Origin: a phage
Assembly: GCA_025677605.1 (NCBI GenBank)
Contig: GCA_025677605.1_4110.1
Length of the DNA: 64,000 bases
Reading direction: 5' to 3' (one strand)
Part shown: in pieces, positions 6,192 to 42,421 of the stretch
How positions within the stretch are numbered: position 1 is the first letter of the stretch
Layout: each line of letters begins with the position of its first letter
Program-made: the position numbers and the translations under genes
The notes under the pieces: generated by a model
The model's input: only the letters and a program-made list of their open reading frames with translations
What the model was told of the DNA's origin: nothing
Database searches by the model: none

Positions 6192-6200
6192 TATATTCCC

Positions 6201-7397
6201 TTATAGATAATAGGTTCCATAAAAAATAGGACAGTCAGTGCTAATATGAACCATAGTTTTTTTATTAGATTCTGATGAATTATTACTATATCGTTTGGTC
6301 GGTGGATAGAAAGGTGAATTATAACCACGCCATGTATTGAAAGATGTATGTTCATCGATATCAACATCCATTGACATTACACCATTCGCATCAACTTCTA
6401 CTGGGTATCCGCAGTATTTTTCAAAATCACCCTTGTACGCTATAGAATAATCATGGCGATAATATCCATAGGAATTTCTGCTGTTGTTATCTGAAATACC
6501 AAAGAATACACGATATTTTTGACCATTCTGTTCAGTCATGAATAATACGTTTTCATTGAAACGACCATTAACAAGAACGTCTTTAGTGATTTCAGTGTAT
6601 TTTACTTTCATATCAGTACTTTTAAATGATTTAGTACTGATCAGTACTGGCCTATTACATTCACCTAATGCGTTCTCAGTTCGCATTCGGTACGTATTGA
6701 AATATGCATTTGCTTTAACAATTTCAGCTTCCATTGTTGTTTTAACGTTATGGAGTGCTCTGGGTGTTAATTCGTATCGGTCAAGGCTTGCACATACACC
6801 ATATGTACCATCAGCGATACAATACACCATATGATAGAAAGAACTTTTGTTAGGTAAAGAGAATTCTTTAGTTTTCTTCAAACAAAGAGCATGAACGCGA
6901 CCACAATAGTAGTACTCTTTTTTGTTATAAAGGAATCCATCACCAACTTTCAACTCACCAACAACGCTTTTACGTTCTTCAGCTTTTTCTTGCTTCTCTT
7001 GCATCTTAGCAAATGTTTTTGTATTACCATTGATGAGTTCAAGATTATTATTAAAGAACATAGCATCTTGGAATACACCATTAACGATATCATTGTGTGT
7101 GATTAAGTCCAGCATATTGTTTGCAGTGATATTGAACTCAAATCCTTCTGGGTGACGACAAACAAAATAGGTATCACGCCCACTGTGAATCAATTTTTGA
7201 ACAATAGCAAAACCTTTTTTCGGTTCATTGTCGAGTATAAGTGACGGCATATTATTGGTTCTTGCCCAGTACTCAACACGTTCTTTCTTAGTTTCAAATG
7301 CTTTAGTGTGCATTTTAGTTGCGTCGATAATATATCCGTCAACCTGATCCCCACTAACAAAACGTCTTGCGACGAAAATCTTTTCAGGAAAATTCAT
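6201..7397 (-). CDS. hypothetical protein (~399 aa)
   Basis: Track ORF 6201..7460; likely start at Met (MNFPEKIF) at 7397 forming ATGA overlap with upstream stop. Confidence 0.5.
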   Translation of the reverse strand: MNFPEKIFVARRFVSGDQVDGYIIDATKMHTKAFETKKERVEYWARTNNMPSLILDNEPKKGFAIVQKLIHSGRDTYFVCRHPEGFEFNITANNMLDLITHNDIVNGVFQDAMFFNNNLELINGNTKTFAKMQEKQEKAEERKSVVGELKVGDGFLYNKKEYYYCGRVHALCLKKTKEFSLPNKSSFYHMVYCIADGTYGVCASLDRYELTPRALHNVKTTMEAEIVKANAYFNTYRMRTENALGECNRPVLISTKSFKSTDMKVKYTEITKDVLVNGRFNENVLFMTEQNGQKYRVFFGISDNNSRNSYGYYRHDYSIAYKGDFEKYCGYPVEVDANGVMSMDVDIDEHTSFNTWRGYNSPFYPPTKRYSNNSSESNKKTMVHISTDCPIFYGTYYL

Positions 7398-7816: not shown

Positions 7817-8034
7817 ACCTCTTGTTTTTCTACATATCCTTTACCATCACAATCTGGACATGCATAATATCGACGAAATTCTTCATCGGGAACTTGTTGT
7901 GTTCCGTTACATTTAGGACAAATGCGACGAACACCAGAAATAATACGTTCATGATGCTCAGCTTGTTTAGCTGAATCAAAAATGCGACCATCTTCAGTTT
8001 GATATTTTTCAACCTGAACATAAATTACTTTCAT
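7807..8034 (-). CDS. small zinc-ribbon protein
   Basis: Two CxxCxGxG-type pairs: CPKCNGTQQV and CPDCDGKGYV (DnaJ cysteine-rich-repeat-like). Confidence 0.6.
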   Translation of the reverse strand: MKVIYVQVEKYQTEDGRIFDSAKQAEHHERIISGVRRICPKCNGTQQVPDEEFRRYYACPDCDGKGYVEKQEVWK

Positions 8035-8321
8035 TTTATATCCTTATAAAAAGTTAAATCTTCAGTGCTTAATTGTACAAAACATTTGTTAGTTTCATTG
8101 TCAACCAGAATTTCAACATACACCTTCACTTCATGAATTGTTACAATTCTATGAATCACACCAATAGTAGTTCCATCTATATATGGTAGCTCAACCCAAC
8201 GACCAACCAATTTATCACTTAAATGGTCTTTCATTTGTTGGTTGGTATCATTGATTATTGCATCGAGTGATTTTTTAAAAAAGTTAAATTCGGTTAATGC
8301 ACTATCAATCATGTCATGCAT
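8031..8321 (-). CDS. hypothetical protein (96 aa)
   Basis: Minus-strand ORF. Confidence 0.5.
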   Translation of the reverse strand: MHDMIDSALTEFNFFKKSLDAIINDTNQQMKDHLSDKLVGRWVELPYIDGTTIGVIHRIVTIHEVKVYVEILVDNETNKCFVQLSTEDLTFYKDIK

Positions 8322-8326
8322 AATAA

Positions 8327-9070
8327 TTACCTTTTGAATCGACTAAATGAATATTCGTCTTTTTCTTTACGCAAATAACGCATCTTACCACCTTGTGGGG
8401 TAGCAATAGTCAAATCACCAGTAAGAAACTGACTGTCAATCCAGATACGGTTACCATAAATGAGGGGATCAAACACGGCAGTATGCCCACTAAGTACATA
8501 ATCTACGTTGGTAATACGTGATGCATTAAAGACGTTGTTGGCTTTACAGAAATCAAATGTCTTTCTGTCCCATAGGCATGACTCAATTGTATCACTGGAC
8601 ATTGATTTTGTCCCAGTAATGAACTTATTCCAGTCAGTGTGCTTAAGGTCTACACTTGCATGTACGAGGCCAATCTTGAGTCCTCTGTGATTGATTTGGA
8701 TAATCATAGGTAGCTGGTTCAAGTACTGACGGAAGAATTCCACTCCTGATACACCAACTTCTTCCAGGAACTTATCGCCCCCATTCTGTGTCCAGCAATG
8801 ATACCAGTCACGATGAGTTGCAGAATCAATACACATCGATTCATGATTGCCCATGATCATATATCGATTCTCAGCGAATAAAAACTCAAACAAAAGGTGA
8901 GCACTTTGCTCACCTCTGTCAATTAAATCGCCTAAACTGAATACATAATCTTCAGGAGTAATACCAAATTCTTTCTTGGTATGTTCCCATAGTTTTGCAT
9001 TACCGTGAATGTCTCCTACTATATACAAATCTTTTTCATCAGGAACTGTTACTTCTAAGAAATGTTTCAT
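8327..9070 (-). CDS. Ser/Thr protein phosphatase-family metallophosphatase
   Basis: Motifs GDIHGN, GDLIDRGEQS, GNHE typical of PPP-family / lambda-phosphatase-like enzymes. Confidence 0.8.
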   Translation of the reverse strand: MKHFLEVTVPDEKDLYIVGDIHGNAKLWEHTKKEFGITPEDYVFSLGDLIDRGEQSAHLLFEFLFAENRYMIMGNHESMCIDSATHRDWYHCWTQNGGDKFLEEVGVSGVEFFRQYLNQLPMIIQINHRGLKIGLVHASVDLKHTDWNKFITGTKSMSSDTIESCLWDRKTFDFCKANNVFNASRITNVDYVLSGHTAVFDPLIYGNRIWIDSQFLTGDLTIATPQGGKMRYLRKEKDEYSFSRFKR

Positions 9071-9321
9071 TGTTCTTTAATCCATATAATTTTATCATAG
9101 GTGACAACTTGAGTATTGGCAATTTGGTCATTAACATAGCAATCTACGTAATATCGCACATCACCATAATATGTTCCCATATCTCTTATGCATATTTTTT
9201 GCCAACCTCTGGAGTGTTTAAGAAGAATTTCTTGACCAATATATTTGTGCTTAGCACGTTGGACAAAATCATCAGATAACGATTGTAACATCTTTAACTG
9301 TTCAATTTCCGTCTTTGTCAT
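9067..9321 (-). CDS. hypothetical protein (84 aa)
   Basis: Minus-strand ORF; ATGA-type overlap. Confidence 0.5.
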   Translation of the reverse strand: MTKTEIEQLKMLQSLSDDFVQRAKHKYIGQEILLKHSRGWQKICIRDMGTYYGDVRYYVDCYVNDQIANTQVVTYDKIIWIKEQ

Positions 9322-9544
9322 GTTTCTTCTTCTTGAATTTTGTTAGTGTATCGTAAAAATCTTTACAGATTGAAATGAAAAGATACACCAACGACACAGG
9401 CCACAGTACTGATAACATAGAGCAGGTACTAATATTAATCATTGTGGTAGGGGTATCTTTAAAAGAACCCCAATTGATGATAAGAAAAGTACTGATAAAT
9501 GTACTCAGTACTCCTACACCATACAAAGCAAAAAATAAAATCAT
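9302..9544 (-). CDS. small membrane protein (2 predicted TM helices)
   Basis: Hydrophobic segments LFFALYGVGVLSTFISTFLII and MLSVLWPVSLVYLFISI. Confidence 0.5.
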   Translation of the reverse strand: MILFFALYGVGVLSTFISTFLIINWGSFKDTPTTMINISTCSMLSVLWPVSLVYLFISICKDFYDTLTKFKKKKHDKDGN

Positions 9545-9889
9545 TTATTCCTCTTCTATTAGTTCTAAACGATCTAAACGGTAAGTGAATCCGTACCATT
9601 CAGAACTTTTTGGATTTTCATATTCAACATCAACATAGATTGATGAATTCTTTACTCGCAACAAAGTAATAAACATAACTGTATTTTCGTTGATATGAGA
9701 AGCTTCATCATCACAATAAATCCAGTCAGAATCTACTTCATCCTCCTTAGCCTTATTGATGTGGTCAATATACTCTTGAGTGAATTTTACTTTTTTGCCT
9801 ATTAATTTATTTTTTAAGGTACTAACGAATTCTGATTGAAGATCAAGGAGAGATTCGAAGTACCTTAGTTCAGATGATAACGGAACCAT
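9545..9889 (-). CDS. hypothetical protein (114 aa)
   Basis: Minus-strand ORF. Confidence 0.5.
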   Translation of the reverse strand: MVPLSSELRYFESLLDLQSEFVSTLKNKLIGKKVKFTQEYIDHINKAKEDEVDSDWIYCDDEASHINENTVMFITLLRVKNSSIYVDVEYENPKSSEWYGFTYRLDRLELIEEE

Positions 9890-10506
9890 TAATCACAGCT
9901 TCCTGAACTTGAGCTTGAACTATCACAAGAGCCACTGTCATAAGAGGAAGATGAGTCGCTATAGGATGAAGTACTGATAATTGCGGCAGTTGTTGCTGCT
10001 GTCAGTAGAACAGTGCTTGTACCATCATCAGTACTGGTAGTACTGGAAGATGCTTCCTTATCAGTTTTAGTGCTTTTGCGAGTTGTACTGGTTTTTTTGG
10101 TATTTTTAGTGCTAGTCTTGCGACCTTTTGTTTTCTTAGAAGTTTTTGCTTTTGTTTTAGTTGTTGATGCTTTTGGTTGTGGTTCTTCTTTTACTGGAAC
10201 TTCTTCAACTTCTTCCTGAACTGATTTAACTTCTTCAGCCGCACCATCAATGTAAACGTCATCAACAGTTAAAGTTGGCGTATATCCTTCAAAAACTGGT
10301 ACATCATGTACTGCTTTATCACGATTATCGTCAATGACTGGTGTCATGTCACGGCGACCCATAATAATTAGTAAACCTAGTTCTAGTACTGGCGTAAAAA
10401 TAATACCAAATACTGTGTATGCCAGTGCATTACGGTTGTAAGATTTTGCCAAAAACCAACCAATAACCAGACCAAGTACGTATAGTACGTATAGTGCATA
10501 AATCAT
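9889..10506 (-). CDS. membrane-anchored protein with Ser/Thr/Lys-rich low-complexity tail
   Basis: N-terminal TM helices followed by acidic linker and TSKKTKGRKTSTKNTKK...SSSSYDSGSCDSSSSSSGSCD tail. Confidence 0.55.
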   Translation of the reverse strand: MIYALYVLYVLGLVIGWFLAKSYNRNALAYTVFGIIFTPVLELGLLIIMGRRDMTPVIDDNRDKAVHDVPVFEGYTPTLTVDDVYIDGAAEEVKSVQEEVEEVPVKEEPQPKASTTKTKAKTSKKTKGRKTSTKNTKKTSTTRKSTKTDKEASSSTTSTDDGTSTVLLTAATTAAIISTSSYSDSSSSYDSGSCDSSSSSSGSCD

Positions 10507-10802
10507 AGTATGACTCCTTTAATTACAATTATTTTACCGATATCTTCGATATAATTAGAAAAGTGATAGTTGTCTTGGTATATCAACCACGCACCAAACC
10601 CATCTACTATTTCGATTATATTAATTTCTTCAATTGGATTATTTTTACATTCAGCAACTAACGGACAAAAATAATCATTTAAAATTTGAAGATATATTTT
10701 ACTTACCTCTAACCATTCAGTTCTATTATAGTATTTGTCAAAAGTAAAAGTTTCCCACAGAAGTTTATATGTTTCTTCTGCTTCATATAATATTTTAATC
10801 AT
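10503..10802 (-). CDS. hypothetical protein (99 aa)
   Basis: Minus-strand ORF, ATGA overlap. Confidence 0.5.
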   Translation of the reverse strand: MIKILYEAEETYKLLWETFTFDKYYNRTEWLEVSKIYLQILNDYFCPLVAECKNNPIEEINIIEIVDGFGAWLIYQDNYHFSNYIEDIGKIIVIKGVIL

Positions 10803-11101
10803 ATACTAATAATTTCGTTAGTGGATACTACTCTTCCGTACATCAATGGGATTACGTACACATTTGGAACCGAAATCCCCACTGATTTAATTGTATCACA
10901 TAGCTCATTATTTGTCCTGGCATTTTTGAACTTTATTTCTCTACCTTCAAATGCATCAATAACAGATTGTGAATATGAATCCATTAACACCCTGAAGTTA
11001 ATCATCATAGTTGGGTAGTCTAGTATCCCCTCAAGTCGCATATCATGGCACGTTCTGAATAGCATAATGTATGTTTTATGACAAAGTAATAGTTCATTCA
11101 T
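10799..11101 (-). CDS. hypothetical protein (100 aa)
   Basis: Minus-strand ORF, ATGA overlap. Confidence 0.5.
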   Translation of the reverse strand: MNELLLCHKTYIMLFRTCHDMRLEGILDYPTMMINFRVLMDSYSQSVIDAFEGREIKFKNARTNNELCDTIKSVGISVPNVYVIPLMYGRVVSTNEIISI

Positions 11102-11415
11102 ATGAAAATCTCATCCAGATACAATGTAGTACTGGGTCTGTCTGTATTAACATCAGTACTGCAATCAATCATCAGACCGTAGTCAGTACCCCATATTTGC
11201 TTGATATAAAGGTCATAATCACGACTGGTATTTGCTTCATATACTACATTATTATAAAAAAGATCAGTCAATTCGTAATAGAAATCTTTAACACGTTTAT
11301 TCACCTCTTTTCTGTACATATCCATCTCAACGTTATCAATGTACAATAACCATTTCAGACAATAATTAAAATGATTCTCGTACATTATTAATTTATTATA
11401 TTCTTCTTGTGTCAT
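11098..11415 (-). CDS. hypothetical protein (105 aa)
   Basis: Minus-strand ORF, ATGA overlap. Confidence 0.5.
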   Translation of the reverse strand: MTQEEYNKLIMYENHFNYCLKWLLYIDNVEMDMYRKEVNKRVKDFYYELTDLFYNNVVYEANTSRDYDLYIKQIWGTDYGLMIDCSTDVNTDRPSTTLYLDEIFI

Positions 11416-11735
11416 AGTTCAATCTCTTCTATGTACATACTATTTTCTATGTACGGATCAAATGGGTGTATTTTATAATCAACGAATATTCCATATCCTG
11501 TACCAAAAACACCATGAATATATACAATATCATCTTCGCACTTAATAGTTCTGTACTTAAATCTCTTTTCCAATGATTCATATATTTCACTAATTATACA
11601 GTTAATATAGTTATATAACTGATGGTTTGATTTAGTGCATTGTTCTTCAAGAAGTATATTATATAGAATCAGAAAGTATCTGTTTATATAATTCAAATAA
11701 TCTAATTCACTTTTTGTTATTAACGTGTTGGTCAT
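11412..11735 (-). CDS. hypothetical protein (107 aa)
   Basis: Minus-strand ORF. Confidence 0.5.
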   Translation of the reverse strand: MTNTLITKSELDYLNYINRYFLILYNILLEEQCTKSNHQLYNYINCIISEIYESLEKRFKYRTIKCEDDIVYIHGVFGTGYGIFVDYKIHPFDPYIENSMYIEEIEL

Positions 11736-12123
11736 ATATAATCTCTATCTCATTTGAATCGTAATATGCTTTATGGGTTCTTGTTTTATTTTGGTATTTT
11801 ATTTTGGTTTTGATAAAATATATAACCTTTTTCCATTCATAATACACGTACTCAATTTTACCATAGTCACCAGTACTAAGTAATACTTTTTTACCTTTGT
11901 ACAGTTCTTGTAATTGTGTTTTATAATCCTCAAGAAATCTACTTTCAAAAATTTTTACATCACTTTCCATCACAAGGTCGATAAGAATAGCAAGATGCCT
12001 ATCCAATAATAGTAAGTTCTCTTGATCGTATTGCATAATATCTTTGTCCATTATCAGATTTTGCCGTATACATGTATGCCCCATAAGAATATGATATGTT
12101 GGTAATTTCAACTTCTCTTCCAA
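11707..12123 (-). CDS. hypothetical protein (start uncertain)
   Basis: Minus-strand ORF; overlaps upstream ORF by ~125 nt so true start is probably an internal Met. Confidence 0.4.
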   Translation of the reverse strand: MEEKLKLPTYHILMGHTCIRQNLIMDKDIMQYDQENLLLLDRHLAILIDLVMESDVKIFESRFLEDYKTQLQELYKGKKVLLSTGDYGKIEYVYYEWKKVIYFIKTKIKYQNKTRTHKAYYDSNEIEIIYDQHVNNKK

Positions 12124-12370
12124 GATATATAGCTTTTGTTCCTACGTATTTTTTAAGCAGTGGTGTAGTTAGATCAAGGAGATAGGTTTCAAGGAAATCG
12201 GAAATATCATAACATGGGTCTACTAATTGAGTATGAAAGAAACGACGAGTATCTCTTATCAATTTCACTTGCCTGTCATACAATTCTAATCTCGTCATAT
12301 GTTGCATCCCATAAAAAACCTGCTCGTTCGCACCTGTACAAAATATTACCATTCCAGGTCGCCACTTCAA
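11999..12370 (-). CDS. hypothetical protein (start uncertain)
   Basis: Minus-strand ORF; overlaps upstream ORF, probable internal start. Confidence 0.4.
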   Translation of the reverse strand: MKWRPGMVIFCTGANEQVFYGMQHMTRLELYDRQVKLIRDTRRFFHTQLVDPCYDISDFLETYLLDLTTPLLKKYVGTKAIYLGREVEITNISYSYGAYMYTAKSDNGQRYYAIRSRELTIIG

Positions 12371-12557
12371 TAATTGTCCATGTTAAATCGGTATCATCTA
12401 GAACATTGACACCAAAAACCACTTTTGATAATTCGTTCTCGTAATTATCCATCAGTACTGATAATGATGTTAGTAATCTTTCATCGGATTCTGAAAAATA
12501 TAAACTACGTAAAATACGATAATGATAATAAAAAAACTTCAATGAATCATTATTCAT
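12276..12557 (-). CDS. hypothetical protein (93 aa)
   Basis: Minus-strand ORF. Confidence 0.45.
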   Translation of the reverse strand: MNNDSLKFFYYHYRILRSLYFSESDERLLTSLSVLMDNYENELSKVVFGVNVLDDTDLTWTIIEVATWNGNILYRCERAGFLWDATYDEIRIV

Positions 12558-12859
12558 GAAAAAATAAACCTCGAATATATTCTTGAGCGAAATGTTATAT
12601 TACTTGGGATATATTTGCAACAAAGGTATGGATATCCGTAAGTGCTGGATTCGATTTTGGTAATAATAACATCACTACCTCGATATTTGCACTGAACATT
12701 TGAGTATTTTTTATTCAAAAAGTCAAGATATTCATCATGAAAATGAATGAGTTGTTCTTCAAACTTGTATTGTTTTTCATTATACATTGCAAGAGATTCT
12801 TCTTTAAGAAGATATAATGTTTTCAATAATGCTTGGAATTCATTCGTATTCATATCCAT
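12554..12859 (-). CDS. hypothetical protein (101 aa)
   Basis: Minus-strand ORF, ATGA overlap. Confidence 0.5.
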   Translation of the reverse strand: MDMNTNEFQALLKTLYLLKEESLAMYNEKQYKFEEQLIHFHDEYLDFLNKKYSNVQCKYRGSDVIITKIESSTYGYPYLCCKYIPSNITFRSRIYSRFIFS

Positions 12860-13106
12860 CCACAGTAGTTATTGTTGCTCGCGTTGTGAATTGGTATCTA
12901 TGCCCATACATATCAACGCCAGATACAACTATATTATTGTTAGTATCAAGATATACTGAATCAATTTTAATAATGCGTTCCCAGTCACTTGTATCATAGA
13001 CACATTTAACATATGTATCTTTATATTTTTCTGATAGTTGCTTTACTAAATTTTTCAGTACTTGAATATGTGAATTAACAAATTGGAAATCTATATTAAT
13101 ATTCAT
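12840..13106 (-). CDS. hypothetical protein (88 aa)
   Basis: Minus-strand ORF. Confidence 0.5.
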   Translation of the reverse strand: MNINIDFQFVNSHIQVLKNLVKQLSEKYKDTYVKCVYDTSDWERIIKIDSVYLDTNNNIVVSGVDMYGHRYQFTTRATITTVDGYEYE

Positions 13107-13108
13107 GT

Positions 13109-13369
13109 TTATTCATCCGTTATAGATAATTCAGAGATAATTTTTACCATATGTTCACCCAAGAAATTGTTAGATCCAGTTAGGAATATTTTAGCTTTTA
13201 TTTTAATTTCATCACTAAGTGGAGAATAATAAATCTCTACAATTTGTCCACGTCTCCCAGTTGATAAACATGTAGCAATTTTGCCTATGTACTTGATTCG
13301 CAACTCTTCCATTAGGGAGTGCAAAACCAACTGACATTGTTTGAAATGTACATCATAACTATTATCCAT
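13109..13369 (-). CDS. hypothetical small protein (86 aa), YIGK-type
   Basis: Contains RIKYIGKIATC segment shared with small-protein family at 20.2-22.0 kb. Confidence 0.5.
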   Translation of the reverse strand: MDNSYDVHFKQCQLVLHSLMEELRIKYIGKIATCLSTGRRGQIVEIYYSPLSDEIKIKAKIFLTGSNNFLGEHMVKIISELSITDE

Positions 13370-13384
13370 TATATCACCTAAATT

Positions 13385-13412
13385 AAAAGAAAAGGGATCA
13401 GTACTGATCCCT
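13385..13412 (-). terminator. rho-independent terminator downstream of pseT
   Basis: Perfect palindrome AGGGATCAGT/ACTGATCCCT at 13393-13412 followed on minus strand by U-rich run. Confidence 0.6.
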
Positions 13413-13421
13413 TTGTAATAA

Positions 13422-14354
13422 TCAAAATAGTCCAGGTTCCACCTGAAATACTTTCAAGCCTAGTAGCTTACGCCACATGAATACAACGGCGGCCCTGTCA
13501 TCAAATACTTTCTTAACATCGTAATGATTAACAACGTTATTCATATACAACTCGAATTTGACAACATCATCAGGACGTTTATCATCGATAGCTCGCATTA
13601 ACAATACATCGTAGGGAATGCCCCAATTCTTAAGCCACTGTTCAGTATCAGCACGACACCCTTCAGTACGCCCACTCATGACGATTACCTTACGCTTATG
13701 GAAAACAGCCTCAGCAATGACAGACAGAATTACTTCTTCATCTGGTGTATCCTGAAGGACAGTACTTTCATCAAACGGGTTACGTCCCCACTTATGAGCA
13801 AGAGTACCGTCGATATCAACAATGATAGCAGCTTCACGTGCATTACCATAGTAACCAATGTGTAATGCCTTTCTATAATAGTACGTATCTGCCATTGTGT
13901 CAATGATATCATATTGAACTGAACGCTCACGCTGGAGGTTATATTTCTTACAAAGTTTTACGAACTCTTTAATCTTAAAGAATTCATGAACATCTGCACC
14001 ACGGTCTTCATTAGGCACAAAATCATCATAGAAGTTCTTTTCTTTGTAATCATAACCATTATCTTTAGCCCAACGTTTCCATTCATCACGAAAACCTTGT
14101 TTCAGGTTCGTATCGGACACAATAATATTCCATCCATTCGCTGCTGCGGCGTTTGCTGCACTGAACTGTTGATTAGTTACGTACTTCTCGTTCGCATCAG
14201 TGAATTTATAAGCATCATGTGACCCAGCCATAGACTCTCGAATATCATCACGGTTGATGTTGATAGTCTTGGACTTTGCTTTTTTAATTTCTTGCACTGC
14301 CCACGTGGTTTTACCACATCCTGGCAATCCAACTGTTAGTGTAATAGTTGGCAT
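13422..14354 (-). CDS. pseT: polynucleotide 5'-kinase / 3'-phosphatase
   Basis: P-loop GLPGCGKTT at N-terminus; HAD phosphatase DxDGT motif (IVDIDGTLA); length 310 aa and layout match T4 Pnk as I recall it. Confidence 0.9.
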   Translation of the reverse strand: MPTITLTVGLPGCGKTTWAVQEIKKAKSKTININRDDIRESMAGSHDAYKFTDANEKYVTNQQFSAANAAAANGWNIIVSDTNLKQGFRDEWKRWAKDNGYDYKEKNFYDDFVPNEDRGADVHEFFKIKEFVKLCKKYNLQRERSVQYDIIDTMADTYYYRKALHIGYYGNAREAAIIVDIDGTLAHKWGRNPFDESTVLQDTPDEEVILSVIAEAVFHKRKVIVMSGRTEGCRADTEQWLKNWGIPYDVLLMRAIDDKRPDDVVKFELYMNNVVNHYDVKKVFDDRAAVVFMWRKLLGLKVFQVEPGLF

Positions 14355-14666
14355 TTAATCCTCAATAAATTTCACATTCTTTAGATTGTACCACGAAAAA
14401 CGTTCATGTCGTGTGTTGTGTCCTATAGTTACTTCTACATAGCACTCGTCAGAAATGTGATGAGTAACTACATGAAATTTAACATTAACATCACTAATGA
14501 TAGTTTCGAACCATGTTTTAGTGTTGTAATCCCAGCATTCAACTTTCTTACCAATGAGTGATTTCTTGTATTGTGTAATCATATCATGAACAATTTCAGA
14601 AATAGTATTAGTTAATTCAATTTCTGCATTCATTAAATTATTAAGTTCTTTTAATGCTTTATTCAT
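14355..14666 (-). CDS. hypothetical small protein (103 aa)
   Basis: Minus-strand ORF; KKSLIGKKV segment. Confidence 0.5.
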   Translation of the reverse strand: MNKALKELNNLMNAEIELTNTISEIVHDMITQYKKSLIGKKVECWDYNTKTWFETIISDVNVKFHVVTHHISDECYVEVTIGHNTRHERFSWYNLKNVKFIED

Positions 14667-14938
14667 TAGATTACCTCAATAATATCATCAATTGAGATAC
14701 CAATACAATTATCGACAGTGATATTCAATGTAAAATCATCATCTACATATACATTAGTGATTTTACCATAAACATTCATCCCATCATAAGATGATTTATA
14801 ACGTACTCTTTTGTTAATATATTTTGCACGTAGAGTATTACTCTCACGGTACAATATATCCGTCAAACATTCTGATAGTACTTTATAATATAACAAATCA
14901 CTTGAATGATTGTTTTTCATTGTATTTCCCAACTCCAA
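14666..14938 (-). CDS. hypothetical small protein (90 aa)
   Basis: Minus-strand ORF. Confidence 0.5.
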   Translation of the reverse strand: MELGNTMKNNHSSDLLYYKVLSECLTDILYRESNTLRAKYINKRVRYKSSYDGMNVYGKITNVYVDDDFTLNITVDNCIGISIDDIIEVI

Positions 14939-15134
14939 ATCGCTTGGAGATTTTTACAAGTACAGCTTCATCACAACGAATACTAGCAGTGTCATTGGAT
15001 GAACTGTACTTTAAGGGGGTCCACTGTAATTGAGATTCTTCAAGGAACTTGATACATCTGAAGTAATCTTTCAGAGAAAGAAACTTAACCACTGACATAT
15101 CCTGAACAATACTATGCTGAACTTCAACTTTCAT
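14898..15134 (-). CDS. hypothetical small protein (78 aa)
   Basis: Minus-strand ORF. Confidence 0.45.
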   Translation of the reverse strand: MKVEVQHSIVQDMSVVKFLSLKDYFRCIKFLEESQLQWTPLKYSSSNDTASIRCDEAVLVKISKRFGVGKYNEKQSFK

Positions 15135-15427: not shown

Positions 15428-16573
15428 CTAAAAATCCTTTAGTACATCTTTGTAGTACTTTAGTAAAGTCTCTTTATAATCGACACTTTTGCCATTGTAC
15501 AACGCAAAGGCCAAGCCTTGTCGGTTCAATACATTAGGTAAATCTTGCTGAACCTTTTGAGCGAATTCCTTTCGCTCTAAGTGCTTGTATGCATGGACGA
15601 AGCTTTCTACCTCATCTTGTAAAGCATTATAGCACGAAAATACCAATTGTTCCATTCTTAATATCTTATCCATAGCATATGTATCAGTACTGAACAATTG
15701 TTTTAAGTCATCACTTGCACCAGTCAGTACAGCTTCATATAAATGGGAATCAATAAGAATGGAATCTTTTGTTAAATGCAAAGAGCAATACCAGTCAGTT
15801 TTGATTTTGCACATTGTACCATCTTTCATTATACACACAAAACCTTCAATGTCAAGCATAGAACGTACTTTATCGATTGACTCTTTAAATGTAGGCATAA
15901 TCGGGAATGTATGATGAATGTCATTACCTGTCATATTAGTACTGTACTGTGAAAGGCATGGAAACTTATCACGTAGTGCTTTACCGCATAACAACTCACC
16001 ACTAATACGATGACGAACGTTAAGAACAAATAACTGTTCCACCTGATATGGTAACACAATTCGATACTCTGGGCTTGTGTATTCCAGATTCACAGTATAG
16101 CCCAAACGGTCTGCTTCATCAATGTATTGATAGAGATTTTGGTTCTCGTTCAAAAGTCGAGTACTGTTAATAGCATGGTCAGAAGATAACGAAGTGTGTG
16201 ATTTGCAACGGATTTCACCATCATTATCACGGAATGTGCTGATGATAGATCCATCTAGCTTAGGCATTACAACCGCAATATCATCACAGGTAGTATCAGC
16301 ACTGAACATTGTGTACGGGTTTTCATATGCATTGAAGAACTTTTTCATTGTACGTGCTGCACAACGAATCATAATTCCGTTGGAATCAATTTCCCACATA
16401 GAACCACGAGTTTCTAGTGCATTTTTATTTGTGAAATCGGTATAAGATGCCAGACGATAGGTGAATACACGGTATAAACCACCACCAGGGCTTGTGTGAT
16501 CTATATAGAAAAATGCATCATTAGATTCACATAGTTCCATTAAATCATTGTATATTTCTCGTAAATTACTCAT
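15428..16573 (-). CDS. rnlA: RNA ligase 1
   Basis: N-terminus YNDLMELCESNDAFFY...LYRVFTYRLASYTDF...RGSMWEID and KxDG nucleotidyltransferase motif (VMPKLDGSII) resemble T4 Rnl1 as I recall it; 381 aa. Confidence 0.9.
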   Translation of the reverse strand: MSNLREIYNDLMELCESNDAFFYIDHTSPGGGLYRVFTYRLASYTDFTNKNALETRGSMWEIDSNGIMIRCAARTMKKFFNAYENPYTMFSADTTCDDIAVVMPKLDGSIISTFRDNDGEIRCKSHTSLSSDHAINSTRLLNENQNLYQYIDEADRLGYTVNLEYTSPEYRIVLPYQVEQLFVLNVRHRISGELLCGKALRDKFPCLSQYSTNMTGNDIHHTFPIMPTFKESIDKVRSMLDIEGFVCIMKDGTMCKIKTDWYCSLHLTKDSILIDSHLYEAVLTGASDDLKQLFSTDTYAMDKILRMEQLVFSCYNALQDEVESFVHAYKHLERKEFAQKVQQDLPNVLNRQGLAFALYNGKSVDYKETLLKYYKDVLKDF

Positions 16574-18406: not shown

Positions 18407-18431
18407 AAAAAAGACCAGCAATCCATGCTGG
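18407..18431 (-). terminator. rho-independent terminator
   Basis: Hairpin CCAGCA-ATCCA-TGCTGG followed on minus strand by UUUUUU. Confidence 0.55.
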
Positions 18432-18438
18432 CCTGTAC

Positions 18439-18725: not shown

Positions 18726-19454
18726 TTAGAAGTAAATCATACCAAGTAATTCAGAATCGTCTGGTCTGTTATAATCTTGCTTCTTAACTTTGAAGTAGAA
18801 AGACTCATGTTCTTCTAAATTATATCTCTTTTTAAGGCAACGTGTGTAAGTCTGACAGTTCGGATGTACCCATTCATAAATGTGTACACCATTCTCATCA
18901 TAACCATTTACACTACAACGATTGCCTTCGTGCTTTTTGTAGTTTTTACTCTTTTCAGTAAATTCACGAGCACATGTGGTATGAGGCTTTTTATAATCAA
19001 AAGGTACTTCAGTTATACGGAAATAATAGAAAAATTCGTCTTCATCATATCCCAAGAGCACTGTGTTAGTTTCACGTACATTGTAATGATTCTTACTTTT
19101 TGCTTCATTTTCGTATATATCTTTCAGTACTTCATCAAATACTACATCACTTGCAGCATTCGGGTTTGACACACCTGATACACGGCGTTCAATAATAAAA
19201 TCGGTAAACTTACGTTCTTCTTCAATATCGCCGTTCATATACAGACTAACAAACTTATCCTTGTATGTTTTGACTGAATATTGTTTACCTTGCACTTCAC
19301 TGTATACATCAGCTAGTAAATTCTCTTGTCCGCATTGGACACCACTTACTGAATATGCAGTTGCATGTTCTGCCATTACGGATGTTAGCATTTGGAAATT
19401 TGCAATGTTTAATTGGTTTGCTAACTCGCTGGCAAATCTGATACGGTCAATCAC
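18726..19454 (-). CDS. hypothetical protein (242 aa)
   Basis: Minus-strand ORF. Confidence 0.55.
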   Translation of the reverse strand: MIDRIRFASELANQLNIANFQMLTSVMAEHATAYSVSGVQCGQENLLADVYSEVQGKQYSVKTYKDKFVSLYMNGDIEEERKFTDFIIERRVSGVSNPNAASDVVFDEVLKDIYENEAKSKNHYNVRETNTVLLGYDEDEFFYYFRITEVPFDYKKPHTTCAREFTEKSKNYKKHEGNRCSVNGYDENGVHIYEWVHPNCQTYTRCLKKRYNLEEHESFYFKVKKQDYNRPDDSELLGMIYF

Positions 19455-19512
19455 TCTACACGCTCCTTGTGTTAGTTATTATTCCATACCAACAATTATA
19501 TCACTACTTATA

Positions 19513-19815
19513 CTACTGTCCCGCTTTATAACAATAAAGATTCTCTAATTTGAAGTCCGCAAGGTCACATTCAGAACGTACTCGGTTCTTGTTCCAGTAC
19601 AAAATACGAATCCTTTCATAATCACGATAAACACTAATAATGCTTTTGTGCTTGGATTTATAGTATTCCTGCACAGTCACAAGATACACGGTCCTCAATA
19701 AAGACTTAATGGGATAGGGCATATTCTGTGCTGTAGTAATACTATAAATCATCTTCATTGTTTCAGCAATAAGTACTTCATTTGTTTGATTTGTCATTGA
19801 AATCCTTACATACAC
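19513..19815 (-). CDS. hypothetical protein (100 aa)
   Basis: Minus-strand ORF. Confidence 0.45.
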   Translation of the reverse strand: MYVRISMTNQTNEVLIAETMKMIYSITTAQNMPYPIKSLLRTVYLVTVQEYYKSKHKSIISVYRDYERIRILYWNKNRVRSECDLADFKLENLYCYKAGQ

Positions 19816-19960
19816 TATGTAAAGTAAATCCTAAACCTACACCGACAATTGGAAATAGTAAATTGATATACCATGTATTCATTGTTGAAAATGAATAAGC
19901 ACCTGCAACTGTCAGTACTGCAAGAGAAAAAAGACTCCAGATAAAAAATAATGTTCTCAT
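19778..19960 (-). CDS. small membrane protein (60 aa, 2 TM)
   Basis: Hydrophobic helices FFIWSLFSLAVLTVAGA and LLFPIVGVGLGFTLH. Confidence 0.45.
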   Translation of the reverse strand: MRTLFFIWSLFSLAVLTVAGAYSFSTMNTWYINLLFPIVGVGLGFTLHSVCKDFNDKSNK

Positions 19961-20247
19961 AAAAAGGTTACCTCATCGAATGAAAAGTTTAAGTACGTTG
20001 GTGAATTTTGGTCTAAACTATGAATAGTAATATGACCATTGAAATAAAAAGAAACATCCTCTGCTTGAAGTTTTGGATATTTTCTAGTACTGAAATATCT
20101 TCCTACTACTAAGTCAGAAAACATATTTCTGTATTCTTGTGATACGTTTTTGTATAGGTTATGTAGAGCACTTTCTTGTGAATCGAAAGTAATGGAATAA
20201 TCTTTCACCAATATAGCATATGTTTTCTGTATTAAAATGATATTCAT
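19957..20247 (-). CDS. hypothetical protein (96 aa)
   Basis: Minus-strand ORF, ATGA overlaps both sides. Confidence 0.5.
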   Translation of the reverse strand: MNIILIQKTYAILVKDYSITFDSQESALHNLYKNVSQEYRNMFSDLVVGRYFSTRKYPKLQAEDVSFYFNGHITIHSLDQNSPTYLNFSFDEVTFL

Positions 20248-20507
20248 AAATCACCTAATACCTCAAAAATTATTGTTATTGGGTATACTGGGTTATCAGA
20301 TGAAGTAACACATACTATTAGTACGTTTTTTCCAGGTGCTACATCCTTTACAGTGAAATTAATATTATTAAGAATCAGTGATTTACCAATATAATGTTCT
20401 TTCAAAGATTCTATAAAATAGTCCAGTACTGGATTATCTACACTATAGGATAACTCAGTACTGGCTATCATTTTATATGTATGAACTATTAGTTCAGCTT
20501 TAGTCAT
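20244..20507 (-). CDS. small-protein family member (MNYxDL / YIGK family)
   Basis: Track ORF 20244..20630 trimmed to Met (MTKAELIVHTYKM) matching family N-terminus and size; contains KEHYIGKSLIL. Confidence 0.5.
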   Translation of the reverse strand: MTKAELIVHTYKMIASTELSYSVDNPVLDYFIESLKEHYIGKSLILNNINFTVKDVAPGKNVLIVCVTSSDNPVYPITIIFEVLGDL

Positions 20508-20700
20508 GTACACGCTCACAATTAAGGCAATAAATGCACTCAATGTCTGGTCGCCATGATTTATCAAAATCTTTGTGCTGTTCTTCAGTGTATTCCGCAT
20601 CATCATTGATGGGAAAGAAATCCCCAGCACCAGTGGCCCAGTCTGAATCTAAGCGGAAACGAGCTAATTGAGTACTGTTACAGTATGGACATTTATTCAA
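20500..20700 (-). CDS. small zinc-ribbon protein (66 aa)
   Basis: CPYCNS ... CIYCLNC cysteine pairs; start codon in track is TTG, so start uncertain. Confidence 0.4.
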   Translation of the reverse strand: MNKCPYCNSTQLARFRLDSDWATGAGDFFPINDDAEYTEEQHKDFDKSWRPDIECIYCLNCERVHD

Positions 20701-20980
20701 AATTTATTCCTTCTAACTGATATACGTTTAATGAAAATGACCCACTATTATTATCGCATCTGAAACACAGTGTTAAAGAACCATTAAAACTAACGACATC
20801 AGTACAGGTACATTTTTCACCATTGGATATGATAGATTTTCCTATATATAAATCTCTTACTATAGTACGGTAATGTTGCCATAAAAAATAATACACACTT
20901 TCATAGTACTCATCTGTTACATATGACAAGTATAAGAAGCTATAAAATACTTGTATTTCCTTTAAGTTGTTTTTCATCAT
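20693..20980 (-). CDS. small-protein family member (MNYxDL / YIGK family)
   Basis: RDLYIGKSIIS motif; tandem with paralogs. Confidence 0.55.
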   Translation of the reverse strand: MMKNNLKEIQVFYSFLYLSYVTDEYYESVYYFLWQHYRTIVRDLYIGKSIISNGEKCTCTDVVSFNGSLTLCFRCDNNSGSFSLNVYQLEGINFE

Positions 20981-21240
20981 TTAAAATCCAGTAAATTTAT
21001 ACCAATGAAGTCCCCGTCTCTGCGGTAGAATTCTAAACGCAACCTACCTCTATGACTTACTACATCAGTACAACGATAGTTTTTATTATTTCTACGTATT
21101 GGAAGTCCTATAAAATGATGTTGTATCTCAGATAGATAATTTGACCATATTTTATTACGTACTTCATAGTAGAAACCTAATTCGTTATTCATATCATCAT
21201 ATAAAAGTTGATATGTGAATTGTAAATCATGATAGTTCAT
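20977..21240 (-). CDS. small-protein family member (MNYxDL / YIGK family)
   Basis: N-terminus MNYHDLQFTYQLLYDD; QHHFIGLPI motif. Confidence 0.55.
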   Translation of the reverse strand: MNYHDLQFTYQLLYDDMNNELGFYYEVRNKIWSNYLSEIQHHFIGLPIRRNNKNYRCTDVVSHRGRLRLEFYRRDGDFIGINLLDFK

Positions 21241-21509
21241 AGGTACTCCAAATCAACAAATCCGCTTTTCGACTCTTCATTGTTATAGTAAATTCCAACA
21301 AGACTTCCATTATAACTTTTAATTCTGATAATACGTACAGTCATGTCGTCAATCATATATTCTTTATCAACAAAAATCTCGTTAATCATTGCCAAATATT
21401 CACACCACAATGTAAGAAAAAAATCTCGTTCATCGTAAGTTAATATTCCTTCACCACGTTCATATTGTTCATGAAGAATTTTGTACGTGAATTGTAAATC
21501 CTTATAATT
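21237..21509 (-). CDS. small-protein family member (MNYxDL / YIGK family)
   Basis: Track ORF 21237..21584 trimmed to Met giving family N-terminus MNYKDLQFTYK. Confidence 0.5.
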   Translation of the reverse strand, partial: NYKDLQFTYKILHEQYERGEGILTYDERDFFLTLWCEYLAMINEIFVDKEYMIDDMTVRIIRIKSYNGSLVGIYYNNEESKSGFVDLEYL

Positions 21510-21768
21510 CATAGATATAAATCTCATGTAATCCATCACTAGAATCTCTACCCCTGAAGCATAGATCCCCGTTGTAACTATCAACTTGAAATATTTTTAC
21601 TGTTTTACCTTCGTATTGAATTATAGTACCTATAAAATGTTCACGTAAAGATTTTATATAATCACTCCACAAACGATGATAAAATGCATTATCCATGCAG
21701 TTGTTATCAGCGTAACGATACATATAAAATGTTAGTTTATAGGTGAAATGTAAATCCTTATAATTCAT
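21502..21768 (-). CDS. small-protein family member (MNYxDL / YIGK family)
   Basis: N-terminus MNYKDLHFTYK; REHFIGTII motif. Confidence 0.55.
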   Translation of the reverse strand: MNYKDLHFTYKLTFYMYRYADNNCMDNAFYHRLWSDYIKSLREHFIGTIIQYEGKTVKIFQVDSYNGDLCFRGRDSSDGLHEIYIYEL

Positions 21769-22040
21769 TATAATATCTCTAAATTTATAGATTGTTGTCC
21801 AATAATAGAATCAGTATAGAATAACACAATTTCACCACCTATACTATCAACGCGTGTTAGCTTACGCATTTCACCATCTATAAAGATTTCGTTAGCGTAA
21901 AAGTAATTTTGAATCATTGTAAAATATTCATTCCATATAATATAAACTGGATTTTTATAAATGATAGGATTATGTACTTTACTTTCAATATATGTTTTGT
22001 ATAAAGCTTTATATGTTCTATTCAGTACTCGATAATCCAT
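21768..22040 (-). CDS. small-protein family member (MNYxDL / YIGK family)
   Basis: N-terminus MDYRVLNRTYKALY; same size and position in array. Confidence 0.55.
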   Translation of the reverse strand: MDYRVLNRTYKALYKTYIESKVHNPIIYKNPVYIIWNEYFTMIQNYFYANEIFIDGEMRKLTRVDSIGGEIVLFYTDSIIGQQSINLEIL

Positions 22041-22048
22041 TTACTTTT

Positions 22049-22080
22049 CCTTAAAAAGATGCCCGAACTAAGTCGGGCAT
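22049..22080 (-). terminator. rho-independent terminator
   Basis: Hairpin ATGCCCGA-ACTAAG-TCGGGCAT followed on minus strand by CUUUUUA. Confidence 0.55.
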
Positions 22081-22085
22081 AATTA

Positions 22086-22742
22086 TTATTCATCGTCGTC
22101 ATCATCATCCAGTTCGATGTAGATTTCACCATCATCATCATCAAAGCTTTCAACGATAACACCTGGAATGTTTAGAGTACTGAATAATACGTCATATTTT
22201 TCATCTGAAGGAATTAAGACAAATTCTTCAATATCTTGAATATCTGGCATCTTATCTTCAGGGATACCCATCTGAAGAAGTGATTGAACCATCTTTGCTT
22301 TGAATTCTTCAAATTTCTCTTTAGATGCAAAATCCATGATAAGTTGTGCTACATATCCATCTTCATTACCAAAAGCAATTGCCATTTGTGGATCTGTACC
22401 TACTAAACACCATGTAGTTTTTGCTGTGTTAGTTTCAATAAATTTATGAATTTCTTTGATTACATCATGTCTTGAACTGTTTACGATGCAATCTAGATTC
22501 TCAATGCCGTCCATAATACCAGTACTGTCATTGGTTTCTTCAAACTCACCGAAGTCACCCAGAACATACTGTACACCATCATCATAAATGGAATATGCAT
22601 AATCTAAATCAGCAAGAGAATCACATTTACCTCGAATTGGACGAAGGGATAGCCCAAGGCGTAGATAACGAAAATAAGTATTACTGTTTGTATTTGTCAA
22701 AATAGTTCTCCTTGGTGAGATAGAATAAATGATCACTTCCAA
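22086..22742 (-). CDS. hypothetical protein with poly-Asp/Glu C-terminal tail
   Basis: C-terminus DDDDGEIYIELDDDDDDE; 5' end overlaps upstream ORF so start uncertain. Confidence 0.5.
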   Translation of the reverse strand: MEVIIYSISPRRTILTNTNSNTYFRYLRLGLSLRPIRGKCDSLADLDYAYSIYDDGVQYVLGDFGEFEETNDSTGIMDGIENLDCIVNSSRHDVIKEIHKFIETNTAKTTWCLVGTDPQMAIAFGNEDGYVAQLIMDFASKEKFEEFKAKMVQSLLQMGIPEDKMPDIQDIEEFVLIPSDEKYDVLFSTLNIPGVIVESFDDDDGEIYIELDDDDDDE

Positions 22743-22971
22743 GATAAATTATATATCCAGTATATGAAAGACTCGGTGATGACCTCACTGTACACAGTTT
22801 ACCTTCAGTACTGCACGAAGTCAAGAGTTTTTTGCATTCAGTACTGAAGCCATTGATACCACGGCATTTAATGTGCCATAGTTCTATACCGTCTAGTACT
22901 GAAAATGTTTCGTATGATCCTAAAATACACTCATCCAATATGATAGAAGTGATATCATTTATTTCAGACAT
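22681..22971 (-). CDS. hypothetical protein (96 aa)
   Basis: Minus-strand ORF. Confidence 0.45.
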   Translation of the reverse strand: MSEINDITSIILDECILGSYETFSVLDGIELWHIKCRGINGFSTECKKLLTSCSTEGKLCTVRSSPSLSYTGYIIYLGSDHLFYLTKENYFDKYKQ

Positions 22972-23257
22972 GTAAATTGTCCAGTAAGTTGATTACATCA
23001 TCGTGTGTAAGATCAGTATCAGTACAAAGGAAGTTCATAATGAACTGCATTTGTGAATAAAGATTAGCGAGAAATTCAACTTCATCCAGACGATATGAAT
23101 AACCCATTGGAACCACTTGACATGTCCATTCACCTAGGGTTTTGTTCGCAACAACCGATACAATAGTGTTACCTTTGTATTCTACTTGGATATTACGATA
23201 TCCTGAACTTTCATTTTGTTCCCATAGTACTGGGTTAGTTTTGAAGAGTACTGTCAT
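22964..23257 (-). CDS. hypothetical protein (97 aa)
   Basis: Minus-strand ORF, ATGA overlap. Confidence 0.5.
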   Translation of the reverse strand: MTVLFKTNPVLWEQNESSGYRNIQVEYKGNTIVSVVANKTLGEWTCQVVPMGYSYRLDEVEFLANLYSQMQFIMNFLCTDTDLTHDDVINLLDNLHV

Positions 23258-23793
23258 GGTTCTTTCCTCATGTATTTTATTACATCTTTAAAAAGTTTTA
23301 TTTTCAAGTCATTATCATCACCTGGTAGATAAGAACTGAAGCTTTCAAAATCATCACGCTTAGCAAAAGAACGCATTTCAGTTGAACTGTACTTGCTAAC
23401 GGTTCGGTCTATACCAGCTTGGATTGCTTTTATATTACGAAAATTATACAAGTTTCCATTGTATCTGTCAAGTACATTTTGAAAGTTTTCTATCCTGTCT
23501 GAACCACATATGAAAAGAACATCACTGTACTTACCATTCAATTCCTGCATAATATCAAAAAGATTATCTTCAGTACTGATGTTGTGTTGAATTCTTGGAT
23601 AGAAACCCTCAGTGTAATACATTTTCAATTCAGGTGGTAATGGATTCTTAATACAATCTTGTGTAGTACTAAGGTATATTTTTAAATCAGCATTGTATTG
23701 TTCTTTCATCGATACGGCTTTATCAAAAATTAACCCATGTCCCAAATGCACTGGATTTATACGTCCATACGTTACTATACAAGTGTCTTTCAT
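23254..23793 (-). CDS. cytidylyltransferase-family nucleotidyltransferase (NMNAT/PPAT-like)
   Basis: N-terminal GRINPVHLGH (HxGH) motif and C-terminal SSTEMR (ISSTxIR-like) motif. Confidence 0.65.
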   Translation of the reverse strand: MKDTCIVTYGRINPVHLGHGLIFDKAVSMKEQYNADLKIYLSTTQDCIKNPLPPELKMYYTEGFYPRIQHNISTEDNLFDIMQELNGKYSDVLFICGSDRIENFQNVLDRYNGNLYNFRNIKAIQAGIDRTVSKYSSTEMRSFAKRDDFESFSSYLPGDDNDLKIKLFKDVIKYMRKEP

Positions 23794-40143: not shown

Positions 40144-40683
40144 AAATGCTCGTAAGTCTCTCAGAATGTTTGGTAGAGTGCCTTGTTCCATTACAGAATT
40201 CAGTACATTAAGATCCATTGTAAGATAGAAACCATCAGGGATGTAATCACGCACTAACTTATCCAACTCAATGATATCCATTGTTAACTGATCATATAGA
40301 GTACTGTACTGGAAAAGCACCCCATCGTCAACATTTAAATCTATTAAGTTATCACCGTGATTGCATTGGCAAAAGTTATTAGCAAGATTTTTATGTTTAA
40401 TGCTGCTTATGTACACATATGGATAACGTGTGAGTACACGATTCTGTGCCTCCGAACAACCATCTGCAATTTCTTCATCTGATAACTCAGGGTGCAAAAG
40501 AAACAATGAACTATCACTAATGTACAAAGTACCTATAGAACCGTTTTTATTATTACTGTGTCGAATATAACATGAACCAAGATTTGATATAGGTTTTATA
40601 TCTTGTAGTACAATAGGAAAAAAGTTAATAATAACTTTAGATAGATCTTTTAGTACTGGGTTTATTGTTAATGGTAGACTCAT
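40132..40683 (-). CDS. FQ-family paralog, hypothetical
   Basis: Motif DGVLFQYSTLY. Confidence 0.55.
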   Translation of the reverse strand: MSLPLTINPVLKDLSKVIINFFPIVLQDIKPISNLGSCYIRHSNNKNGSIGTLYISDSSLFLLHPELSDEEIADGCSEAQNRVLTRYPYVYISSIKHKNLANNFCQCNHGDNLIDLNVDDGVLFQYSTLYDQLTMDIIELDKLVRDYIPDGFYLTMDLNVLNSVMEQGTLPNILRDLRAFKRP

Positions 40684-41312: not shown

Positions 41313-41316
41313 TCAA

Positions 41317-42412: not shown

Positions 42413-42421
42413 ATAGCACCT

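Follow-up and report, generated by a model that had tools for sequence, protein, structure and literature searches.

A tandem array of small genes in a phage-derived contig (GCA_025677605.1_4110.1, assembly GCA_025677605.1; the whole 64,000-nucleotide stretch analysed is called the window) was examined and proved to be genuine, though as an accessory gene family it is fairly ordinary and of the kind large phages often carry. Five of its genes, designated G2 to G6, form a clear paralog family, with profile scores well above chance. G1, located beyond an interleaved zinc-ribbon gene, appears to be a distant sixth member, and the adjacent D1 is a borderline candidate for a seventh. Judged from comparison of related genomes, the family evolves by birth and death combined with recombination, such that copy number and subtype composition differ between close relatives. 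We consider it possible, with a probability of roughly 0.45, that the products are non-virion accessory proteins binding variable host or host-defence targets.

The source of the window is an Asteriusvirus jumbo coliphage. Positions 19908-22800 are 99.0% identical to Escherichia phage A4 (ON286972), and 33 further records of Escherichia and Salmonella phages, mostly 310-386 kb, match the same segment. The matching records that were inspected are either Asteriusvirus or carry no genus-level classification. An original prediction, made from the bare DNA sequence, had proposed an array of six open reading frames (ORFs) at this site. All six were found to exist; together with the zinc-ribbon ORF they lie on the minus strand, as does every gene around the array, and coincide with the A4 coding sequences A4_411 to A4_417, which are annotated throughout as 'hypothetical protein' in GenBank. 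Their predicted coordinates were retained with one correction, G4 ending at 21512 and not at 21509, which drops the ATG. By clustering, the family members were sorted into subtypes a (adjoining the zinc-ribbon gene), b, c, d and e, with G1 representing subtype f. Listed in the order of transcription, the genes (lengths in amino acids, aa) are:

21768-22040, minus strand: G6, 90 aa, first gene of the array, e-like paralog found in A4-type phages only
21502-21768, minus strand: G5, 88 aa, e-type paralog
21237-21512, minus strand: G4, 91 aa, e-like paralog, A4-type phages only
20977-21240, minus strand: G3, 87 aa, b-type paralog, structure modelled
20693-20980, minus strand: G2, 95 aa, a-type paralog, conserved member adjoining the zinc-ribbon gene
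20500-20700, minus strand: zinc-ribbon gene, 66 aa, TTG start, interleaved and outside the family
20244-20507, minus strand: G1, 87 aa, distant f-type member on the downstream side of the zinc-ribbon gene
19957-20247, minus strand: D1, 96 aa, borderline candidate seventh member

From G6 down to the gene after G1, consecutive genes overlap by 1, 11, 4, 4, 8, 8 and 4 nucleotides (nt). These tight overlaps suggest a single unit that would be translationally coupled.

To measure homology within the array, leave-one-out profile hidden Markov models (HMMs) were searched against all 354 ORFs of the window, and 500 composition-preserving shuffles per protein served as control. G2-G6 were detected with E values ranging from 1.6e-10 to 6.9e-17 (G6 1.6e-10; G2 4e-14), compared with ~1e-2 to 1e-4 for the best unrelated ORF, and their bit scores of 35.8-56.0 stand against a shuffle maximum of 10.7. 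Profile alignment with hhalign gave probabilities of 94-99.9% among the five, G6 aligning to G4 at 99.9%. When the 159 minus-strand ORFs of the window were clustered by BLASTP (E < 1e-3), exactly the six array ORFs grouped together. G3 and G2 matched phrog_21004 (E 2.7e-11 and 8.7e-5, respectively), whereas G4, G5 and G6 matched phrog_32291 (3.7e-12, 4.8e-10 and 2.5e-12). AT-rich codon bias, which the original prediction had raised as a possible source of the similarity, is ruled out because E values, shuffle scores, hhalign probabilities and the independent PHROG profiles of G2-G6 are all significant.

The proposed six-gene family thus stands for G2-G6, with G1 as a remote relative. G1 was recovered with a leave-one-out E value of 0.0017 (14.3 bits, shuffle maximum 6.3) and aligns to G3 with an hhalign probability of 88%; it has its own PHROG, phrog_33961 (E 7.5e-57). 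D1, which the original prediction did not list, was found by the family HMM at E 7.6e-5 to 4e-5 in small ORF sets; its hhalign probability is 54% (71 columns), and its score of 12.1 bits compares with 11.0 for the best shuffle. A 96-aa protein of phage slurp01, probably the D1 ortholog, matches the G3 structure model described below with a template modelling (TM) score of 0.80. Farther downstream, the N-terminal half of a 100-aa ORF (19513-19815, minus strand) aligns to the family profile at 72% over 49 columns; this may be a remote relative or a chance helical match.

The sequence motifs by which the array had been recognised are shared only in part. G3, G4 and G5 carry the N-terminal start MNY[KH]DL[QH]FTY[KQ]; G6 (MDYRVLNRTYK) and G2 have degenerate forms of it, and in G1 only TYK is left. 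The central [FY]IG[KLT] segment occurs in G1, G2, G3 and G5 and is missing from G4 (IFVDK) and G6 (YFYAN).

Comparison with related phages, one of the checks suggested at the outset, proved the most informative, revealing turnover of both copy number and subtype. Five members precede the zinc-ribbon gene in phages 121Q, JP4, UE-S1, ph0011 and vB_Ec-M-J, three in Turkey5 and two at the syntenic site of Klebsiella phage RaK2. In order of transcription the 121Q array reads e-d-c-b-a, and the window array G6-G5-G4-G3-G2 reads e'-e-e''-b-a; it is devoid of subtypes c and d, and G4 and G6 are singletons among the compared genomes, nearest to subtype e. Amino-acid identity to 121Q is high for D1 (94%), G1 (93%), the zinc-ribbon protein (98.5%) and G2 (97%, gp426), and drops abruptly at the G2/G3 junction to 38% for G3 and 34-37% for G4-G6. 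G3 is ~40% identical to 121Q gp425, and G5 comes closest to 121Q gp422 and its counterparts in vB_Ec-M-J and ph0011 (37-45% identity). At the DNA level, two features are of note:

21066-22024: hypervariable segment delimited by blastn, comprising most of G3 together with G4-G6
21197-21245: reference copy of a 49-nt direct repeat, located at the 5' ends of G3, G4 and G5

The hypervariable segment has no blastn match to 121Q, its flanks being 83% and 74% identical; at megablast level it is covered by phage A4 only, and its products show at most 38% amino-acid identity to any 121Q gene. Outside the A4-type phages, G3-G6 share at most 45% of their residues with any other sequenced relative. The A4-type array (90-88-91-87-95 aa) recurs with identical organisation, and with the same G5 protein, in three metagenomic or SRA assemblies.

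Beyond these phages the family is narrowly distributed. When 5.8 billion proteins were searched by word index, with the family alignment as query, 35 clusters were returned; those with a named source come from records of Escherichia or Salmonella phages, or from E. coli records that are possibly phage sequence. A full HMMER scan of 1.84 billion (1.84e9) representative proteins returned 18 clusters only, and tblastn of G4 against phage genomes gave matches in Escherichia and Salmonella phages only. In RaK2 (Alcyoneusvirus) the frame of the locus is syntenic, with Dam, cytidylyltransferase, a ~200-aa gene, small genes, a zinc-ribbon gene (71% identical) and further small genes; the small ORFs ORF453, ORF455 and ORF456 surround ORF454. 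RaK2 differs in that its zinc-ribbon gene is bordered by just two small genes per side, and the divergence is near the detection limit. Two of its small ORFs carry a faint family signal (HMM E 3.7e-6 and 2.6e-4 in an 11-protein set; hhalign 30-56%), and RaK2 proteins of 89-99 aa, not tied to individual ORFs, match the G3 model at TM 0.50-0.61 in Foldseek. Apparently, the family persists at the syntenic site as far as RaK2.

The rate at which the family changes was estimated from nonsynonymous (dN) and synonymous (dS) substitutions. Between the window and 121Q, JP4 or UE-S1, dN/dS for D1, G1 and G2 is 0.16-0.50 (G2 0.16-0.45; G1 0.23-0.50). For whole-locus rates, 121Q was compared with vB_Ec-M-J and with ph0011. 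Family members of all subtypes show dN of 0.15-0.88 and dN/dS of 0.11-0.62, and at the f position the genes of vB_Ec-M-J and ph0011 share only 28% identity with their 121Q counterpart. A dN of 0.01-0.09 and a dN/dS of 0.02-0.13 were obtained for the enzyme genes, the acidic-tail gene upstream of the array, the zinc-ribbon gene and the closest small neighbours; several other downstream small genes are intermediate (dN up to 0.18, dN/dS up to 0.40). Nonsynonymous change in the family is thus 3-10 times faster than in the flanking genes. Because dN/dS stays below 1, the family is, on these rates, coding and constrained by purifying selection. It is also reshuffled by recombination. Phages 121Q and vB_Ec-M-J have near-identical a and b genes (dS 0-0.03), with neighbours on both sides at dS ~0.9-1.6. 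The near-identical patch spans positions 5786-6344 of the 121Q locus (L002) and 13786-14344 of the vB_Ec-M-J locus (L003) and, by its synonymous divergence, is a recent recombination inside the array. The 49-nt direct repeat, which encodes the conserved MNYKDLQFTYK start, is present in three copies (21197-21245, 21469-21517 and 21725-21773; 69-78% identity) and could possibly serve as a substrate for unequal crossing-over.

High dN and variable copy number would also be expected of largely dispensable duplicates drifting under relaxed constraint, a 'filler' typical of the hyperplastic regions of jumbo phages that needs no specific target. Small, fast-evolving ORFs that lack orthologs abound throughout the 8-22 kb region, and no known domains were found in the family, both of which are in keeping with this explanation. 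We nevertheless regard it as unlikely. Throughout the family dN/dS is below 1 (0.11-0.62), the ORFs are intact in all compared genomes but two low-quality records (CMSTMSU and SD-15_S21), and the predicted fold is confident and conserved. Furthermore, the A4-type organisation is identical in three independent metagenomes, and the family is apparently retained out to RaK2.

An AlphaFold model of G3, based on a 22-sequence alignment, reached a mean predicted local distance difference test (pLDDT) score of 92 and a predicted TM score (pTM) of 0.78. It contains helices at residues 3-18 and 25-43 and strands at 47-50, 53-63, 66-72 and 78-82, and predicts for the family an N-terminal helical hairpin packed on a four-stranded, SH3-like beta-meander. 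Conservation falls on residues that look core-like, namely T9 and Y10, a Trp of helix 2 and, where a hairpin joins strands 2 and 3, S-[YF]-x-G. Searches of Pfam, NCBIfam and PDB sequences with all members gave nothing above threshold, and according to the model the complete two-part fold is without a solved counterpart. The proteins have isoelectric points of 4.5-7.9 and net charges of -8.4 to +0.8, G3 being slightly basic, and no membrane segments are evident in their sequences. A DNA-mimic anti-restriction protein of the Ocr/ArdA/Arn type was considered and rejected on charge; no Pfam match of the array proteins was found either.

The SH3-like character of the C-terminal half, for which the level of evidence is modest, derives from weak Foldseek matches to a KOW-domain phage protein and to SH3-like domains. 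Small beta-barrels of the SH3-like, KOW and Tudor types, including the RNA-polymerase-interacting domain of CarD/TRCF, are five-stranded, strongly bent and antiparallel; the four-stranded beta half of the model resembles them weakly. The same Foldseek matches speak for phage-internal adaptors or regulators that would bind RNA polymerase or nucleic acid through an SH3/Tudor/KOW-like half, so that individual paralogs would adjust separate phage promoter classes or processes. The related phage PA5oct is reported to depend on the host polymerase (PMC7318152), which fits such a role. Yet no family member has a Pfam match to KOW or to CarD_CdnL_TRCF (PF02559), whose Tudor-like N-terminal domain contacts the beta subunit of RNA polymerase, and internal regulators usually co-evolve slowly with their targets, whereas the array genes are swapped and lost between near-identical phages. 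A regulatory function of this kind is, in our estimation, distinctly unlikely.

The original prediction had further pointed to weaker relatives of the array among upstream ORFs sharing a YIGK-like segment. These ORFs are not supported as relatives. Their group profile aligns to the array family profile with an hhalign probability of 3.7%, over a 24-column stretch around the helix-IGK segment, and the individual ORFs reach 45% (9067-9321), 11% (9545-9889), 0.5% (13109-13369) and 0.2% (14355-14666) against the deep family profile. Modelled with AlphaFold (pLDDT 76), 14355-14666 shows a single helix of 35 residues (3-37) and then strands, and lacks the helical hairpin; the top 50 BFVD neighbours of this model in Foldseek include none of the array-family entries matched by the G3 model. 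The shared helix-IGK-strand segment is best read as a generic entry into a small beta-domain rather than as common descent. What seems to be a loose, separate group on the minus strand (8031-8321, 9067-9321, 9545-9889, 13109-13369, 14355-14666 and 14666-14938) has in common a long single N-terminal helix, K-x-[LY]-I-G-K-x-V and a beta-domain; internal homology within the group is weakly supported (hhalign ~50%, one PHROG cross-hit). Iterating the HMM search over the ORFs of the window enlarged the set to 14 members by drift, with marginal E values of ~1e-3. The superfamily this would imply, joining small ORFs at 8-19 kb, was dropped, as non-array ORFs gave hhalign probabilities of at most 15% against individual members and at most 72% against the deep profile. 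D1 and 19513-19815 were kept as weak leads.

The zinc-ribbon ORF interleaved in the array, which had been predicted with its TTG start, is real and highly conserved. The protein carries a CxxC motif at each end and matches phrog_22354 (E 1.3e-49); with dN ~0 at dS 0.33, and hence dN/dS ~0, its gene is among the most constrained of the locus. The start codon is TTG here and ATG in Turkey5 and RaK2. No known family was matched by the protein; the Lar restriction-alleviation family (PF14354) scored 12.4 bits (E 0.19), below the gathering score of 28.6 bits. In every Asteriusvirus examined, and at the RaK2 syntenic site, the zinc-ribbon gene has array members on both sides; it overlaps both neighbours by 8 nt, which is consistent with coupled translation, and the contrast in rate between it and the fast-evolving family is extreme. 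Such features would be expected if the paralogs were exchangeable partner or specificity subunits of the zinc-ribbon protein, array and zinc-ribbon gene forming one functional cassette. The argument, however, is one of adjacency, and a strongly constrained partner should constrain its binders, yet these are the fastest-evolving genes of the locus. A partnership of this type is quite improbable.

The array sits in a conserved frame consisting, in order, of genes for a Dam methyltransferase, a cytidylyltransferase, two small proteins and an acidic-tail protein of ~205-218 aa, then the array and the zinc-ribbon gene, followed by one or two additional family members, a membrane protein of 60 aa and, farther on, an RnlA RNA ligase. 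The acidic-tail gene (22086-22742, minus strand) lies directly upstream of the array and encodes a conserved protein without a Pfam match that ends in a C-terminal poly-acidic tail (DDDDGEIYIELDDDDDDE); its dN/dS is 0.02 between 121Q and ph0011. A polynucleotide kinase/phosphatase-like gene (13422-14354, minus strand) and an RnlA-type RNA ligase gene (15428-16573, minus strand), named from related records, are located 4-7 kb downstream of the array. In phage T4, a polynucleotide kinase and RNA ligase pair mends tRNA cut by the host anticodon nuclease, and genes of the Dam methyltransferase and RNA-repair types serve counter-defence and RNA repair. No tRNAs were found in the window.

Tandem arrays of immunity paralogs occur in bacterial polymorphic toxin loci, and diversified, ~90-residue tandem paralogs look typical of them. 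By analogy, the array proteins could give immunity-like protection from a polymorphic toxin or from an effector of superinfection exclusion. A Pfam scan of seven neighbouring genes (18726-23793) turned up no domain and hence no toxin domain, and the family is without a Pfam or NCBIfam match and so without one to the immunity families held there. The named database matches are, moreover, Escherichia or Salmonella phage records and E. coli records that are possibly phage sequence. Taken together, an immunity function is barely credible.

We favour, tentatively, the view that the array proteins bind macromolecules of the host or of its defences stoichiometrically and so serve host takeover or counter-defence. 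The conserved core would act as a scaffold, and variable surfaces would track variable targets. A binder role would account for the phage keeping several diverged copies and swapping them. The small size of the proteins, the conserved scaffold with variable sequence, the several diverged copies per genome, the turnover between near-identical phages and the DNA-methylation and RNA-repair neighbours all fit such a role. A structural role is unlikely, because the phAPEC6 orthologs gp384c-gp389c are missing from the 62-protein virion proteome determined by mass spectrometry (PMC7247149), a method that small proteins can escape. Several observations weigh against the binder proposal. No known anti-defence or host-takeover protein was matched by sequence (Pfam, NCBIfam, PDB sequences) or fold. 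The average dN/dS is below 1, so positive selection is undemonstrated and relaxed constraint could explain the fast change. A terminator-like hairpin stands directly upstream of G6, and a promoter scan identified no promoter. Finally, DNA mimicry is at odds with the net charges, which lie between -8 and +1.

The hairpin upstream of G6 was found by pattern scan and direct reading of the sequence:

22059-22080, minus strand: terminator-like hairpin

It is a G+C hairpin, ATGCCCGA-CTTAGT-TCGGGCAT followed by CTTTTT (22080-22059), placed between the stop of the acidic-tail gene and the ribosome-binding site of G6 (AAGGA, 8 nt 5' of the ATG), and its function is putative. A second terminator-like G+C hairpin with a T-run was seen at 18412-18434 (minus strand), where the UE-S1 record annotates a terminator at the equivalent position; the pair brackets a block of ~3.6 kb holding the array and the genes that follow. 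A perfect sigma-70 consensus (TTGACA, 17 nt, TATAAT; 12/12) lies 1.4 kb upstream, at 23471-23443 (minus strand), on the coding strand inside the cytidylyltransferase gene, and is a putative promoter. Scanning for sigma-70-like sites gave 43, where 34.8 ± 5.6 were expected, and such a yield does not exceed chance in AT-rich DNA. An Rfam scan of 18-24 kb yielded nothing credible, the sole match being Phe_leader (E 0.094, below the gathering score), and a literature search found no Asteriusvirus transcriptome.

A more elaborate model joins several of these elements. The array and the invariant zinc-ribbon gene might constitute a modular counter-defence cassette, in which a zinc-ribbon effector or anchor is combined with swappable helical-hairpin/SH3-like 'specificity' proteins that recombine at the 5' repeat. 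Each specificity protein would recognise a different host defence or surface-independent host factor, and jumbo phages infecting the same cell would exchange members of the set through recombination at this conserved repeat, which encodes MNYKDLQFTYK. This model is very improbable as it stands; if true, it would describe a phage-encoded, cassette-type diversification system built of whole genes.

The array had also been described as a third, smaller tandem paralog expansion of the genome, which agrees with our count. BLAST clustering (E < 1e-3) gave two larger expansions, one of 23 members of ~70-85 aa and one of 14 members of ~110-210 aa, located on the minus strand at 47716-63315 and 40680-58946. 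Another small tandem duplication is formed by the adjacent ORFs 11098-11415 and 11412-11735 (minus strand; 105 and 107 aa), which are mutually homologous (hhalign 93.8%). They belong to a region, 8000-15000, that is far more diverged among Asteriusviruses than the flanks of the array, orthologs in vB_Ec-M-J and Turkey5 being 34-43% identical and several ORFs having no ortholog at E < 1e-8. The same region contains a 205-aa ORF (9889-10506, minus strand) with a membrane-like N-terminal segment and a long, low-complexity, Ser/Thr/Lys-rich C-terminal half.

The family is already catalogued without a function and belongs to the known fast-evolving paralog arrays of large phages. In addition to the 'hypothetical protein' entries in GenBank, phrog_21004, phrog_32291 and phrog_33961 hold the same proteins, from 121Q, PBECO4 and similar phages, the family being split there into three groups with function unassigned. 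The hyperplastic regions of T4 and the host-takeover module of SPO1, as generally known, and the paralogs of phage CBB likewise consist of tandem, tightly packed, strand-uniform ORFs of ~60-110 residues that are non-virion, without known domains and variable between close relatives. For CBB, 22 paralogous ORFs were reported (PMC5259590). The array differs from the T4 and SPO1 proteins in that no sequence or fold relationship to any characterised one was found. A search of the literature found no published account of the array, its fold or its turnover. New here are the confident fold model, the description of subtypes and of birth and death, the A4-type hypervariable segment and the contrast with the embedded, invariant zinc-ribbon gene.

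Over 80% of the genes carried by RaK2/121Q-group jumbo phages are without known function (PMC7247149). The array is a compact example of where such phages concentrate their variability, with flanks that stay 83-95% identical while five to seven genes are exchanged, duplicated and lost. Should the proteins not be binders, the analysis would still provide a useful description of an ORFan family whose fold has no solved counterpart. If they do bind host or defence components, the array would represent a natural series of related binders with different targets, and it might serve as a host-range marker for therapy coliphages.

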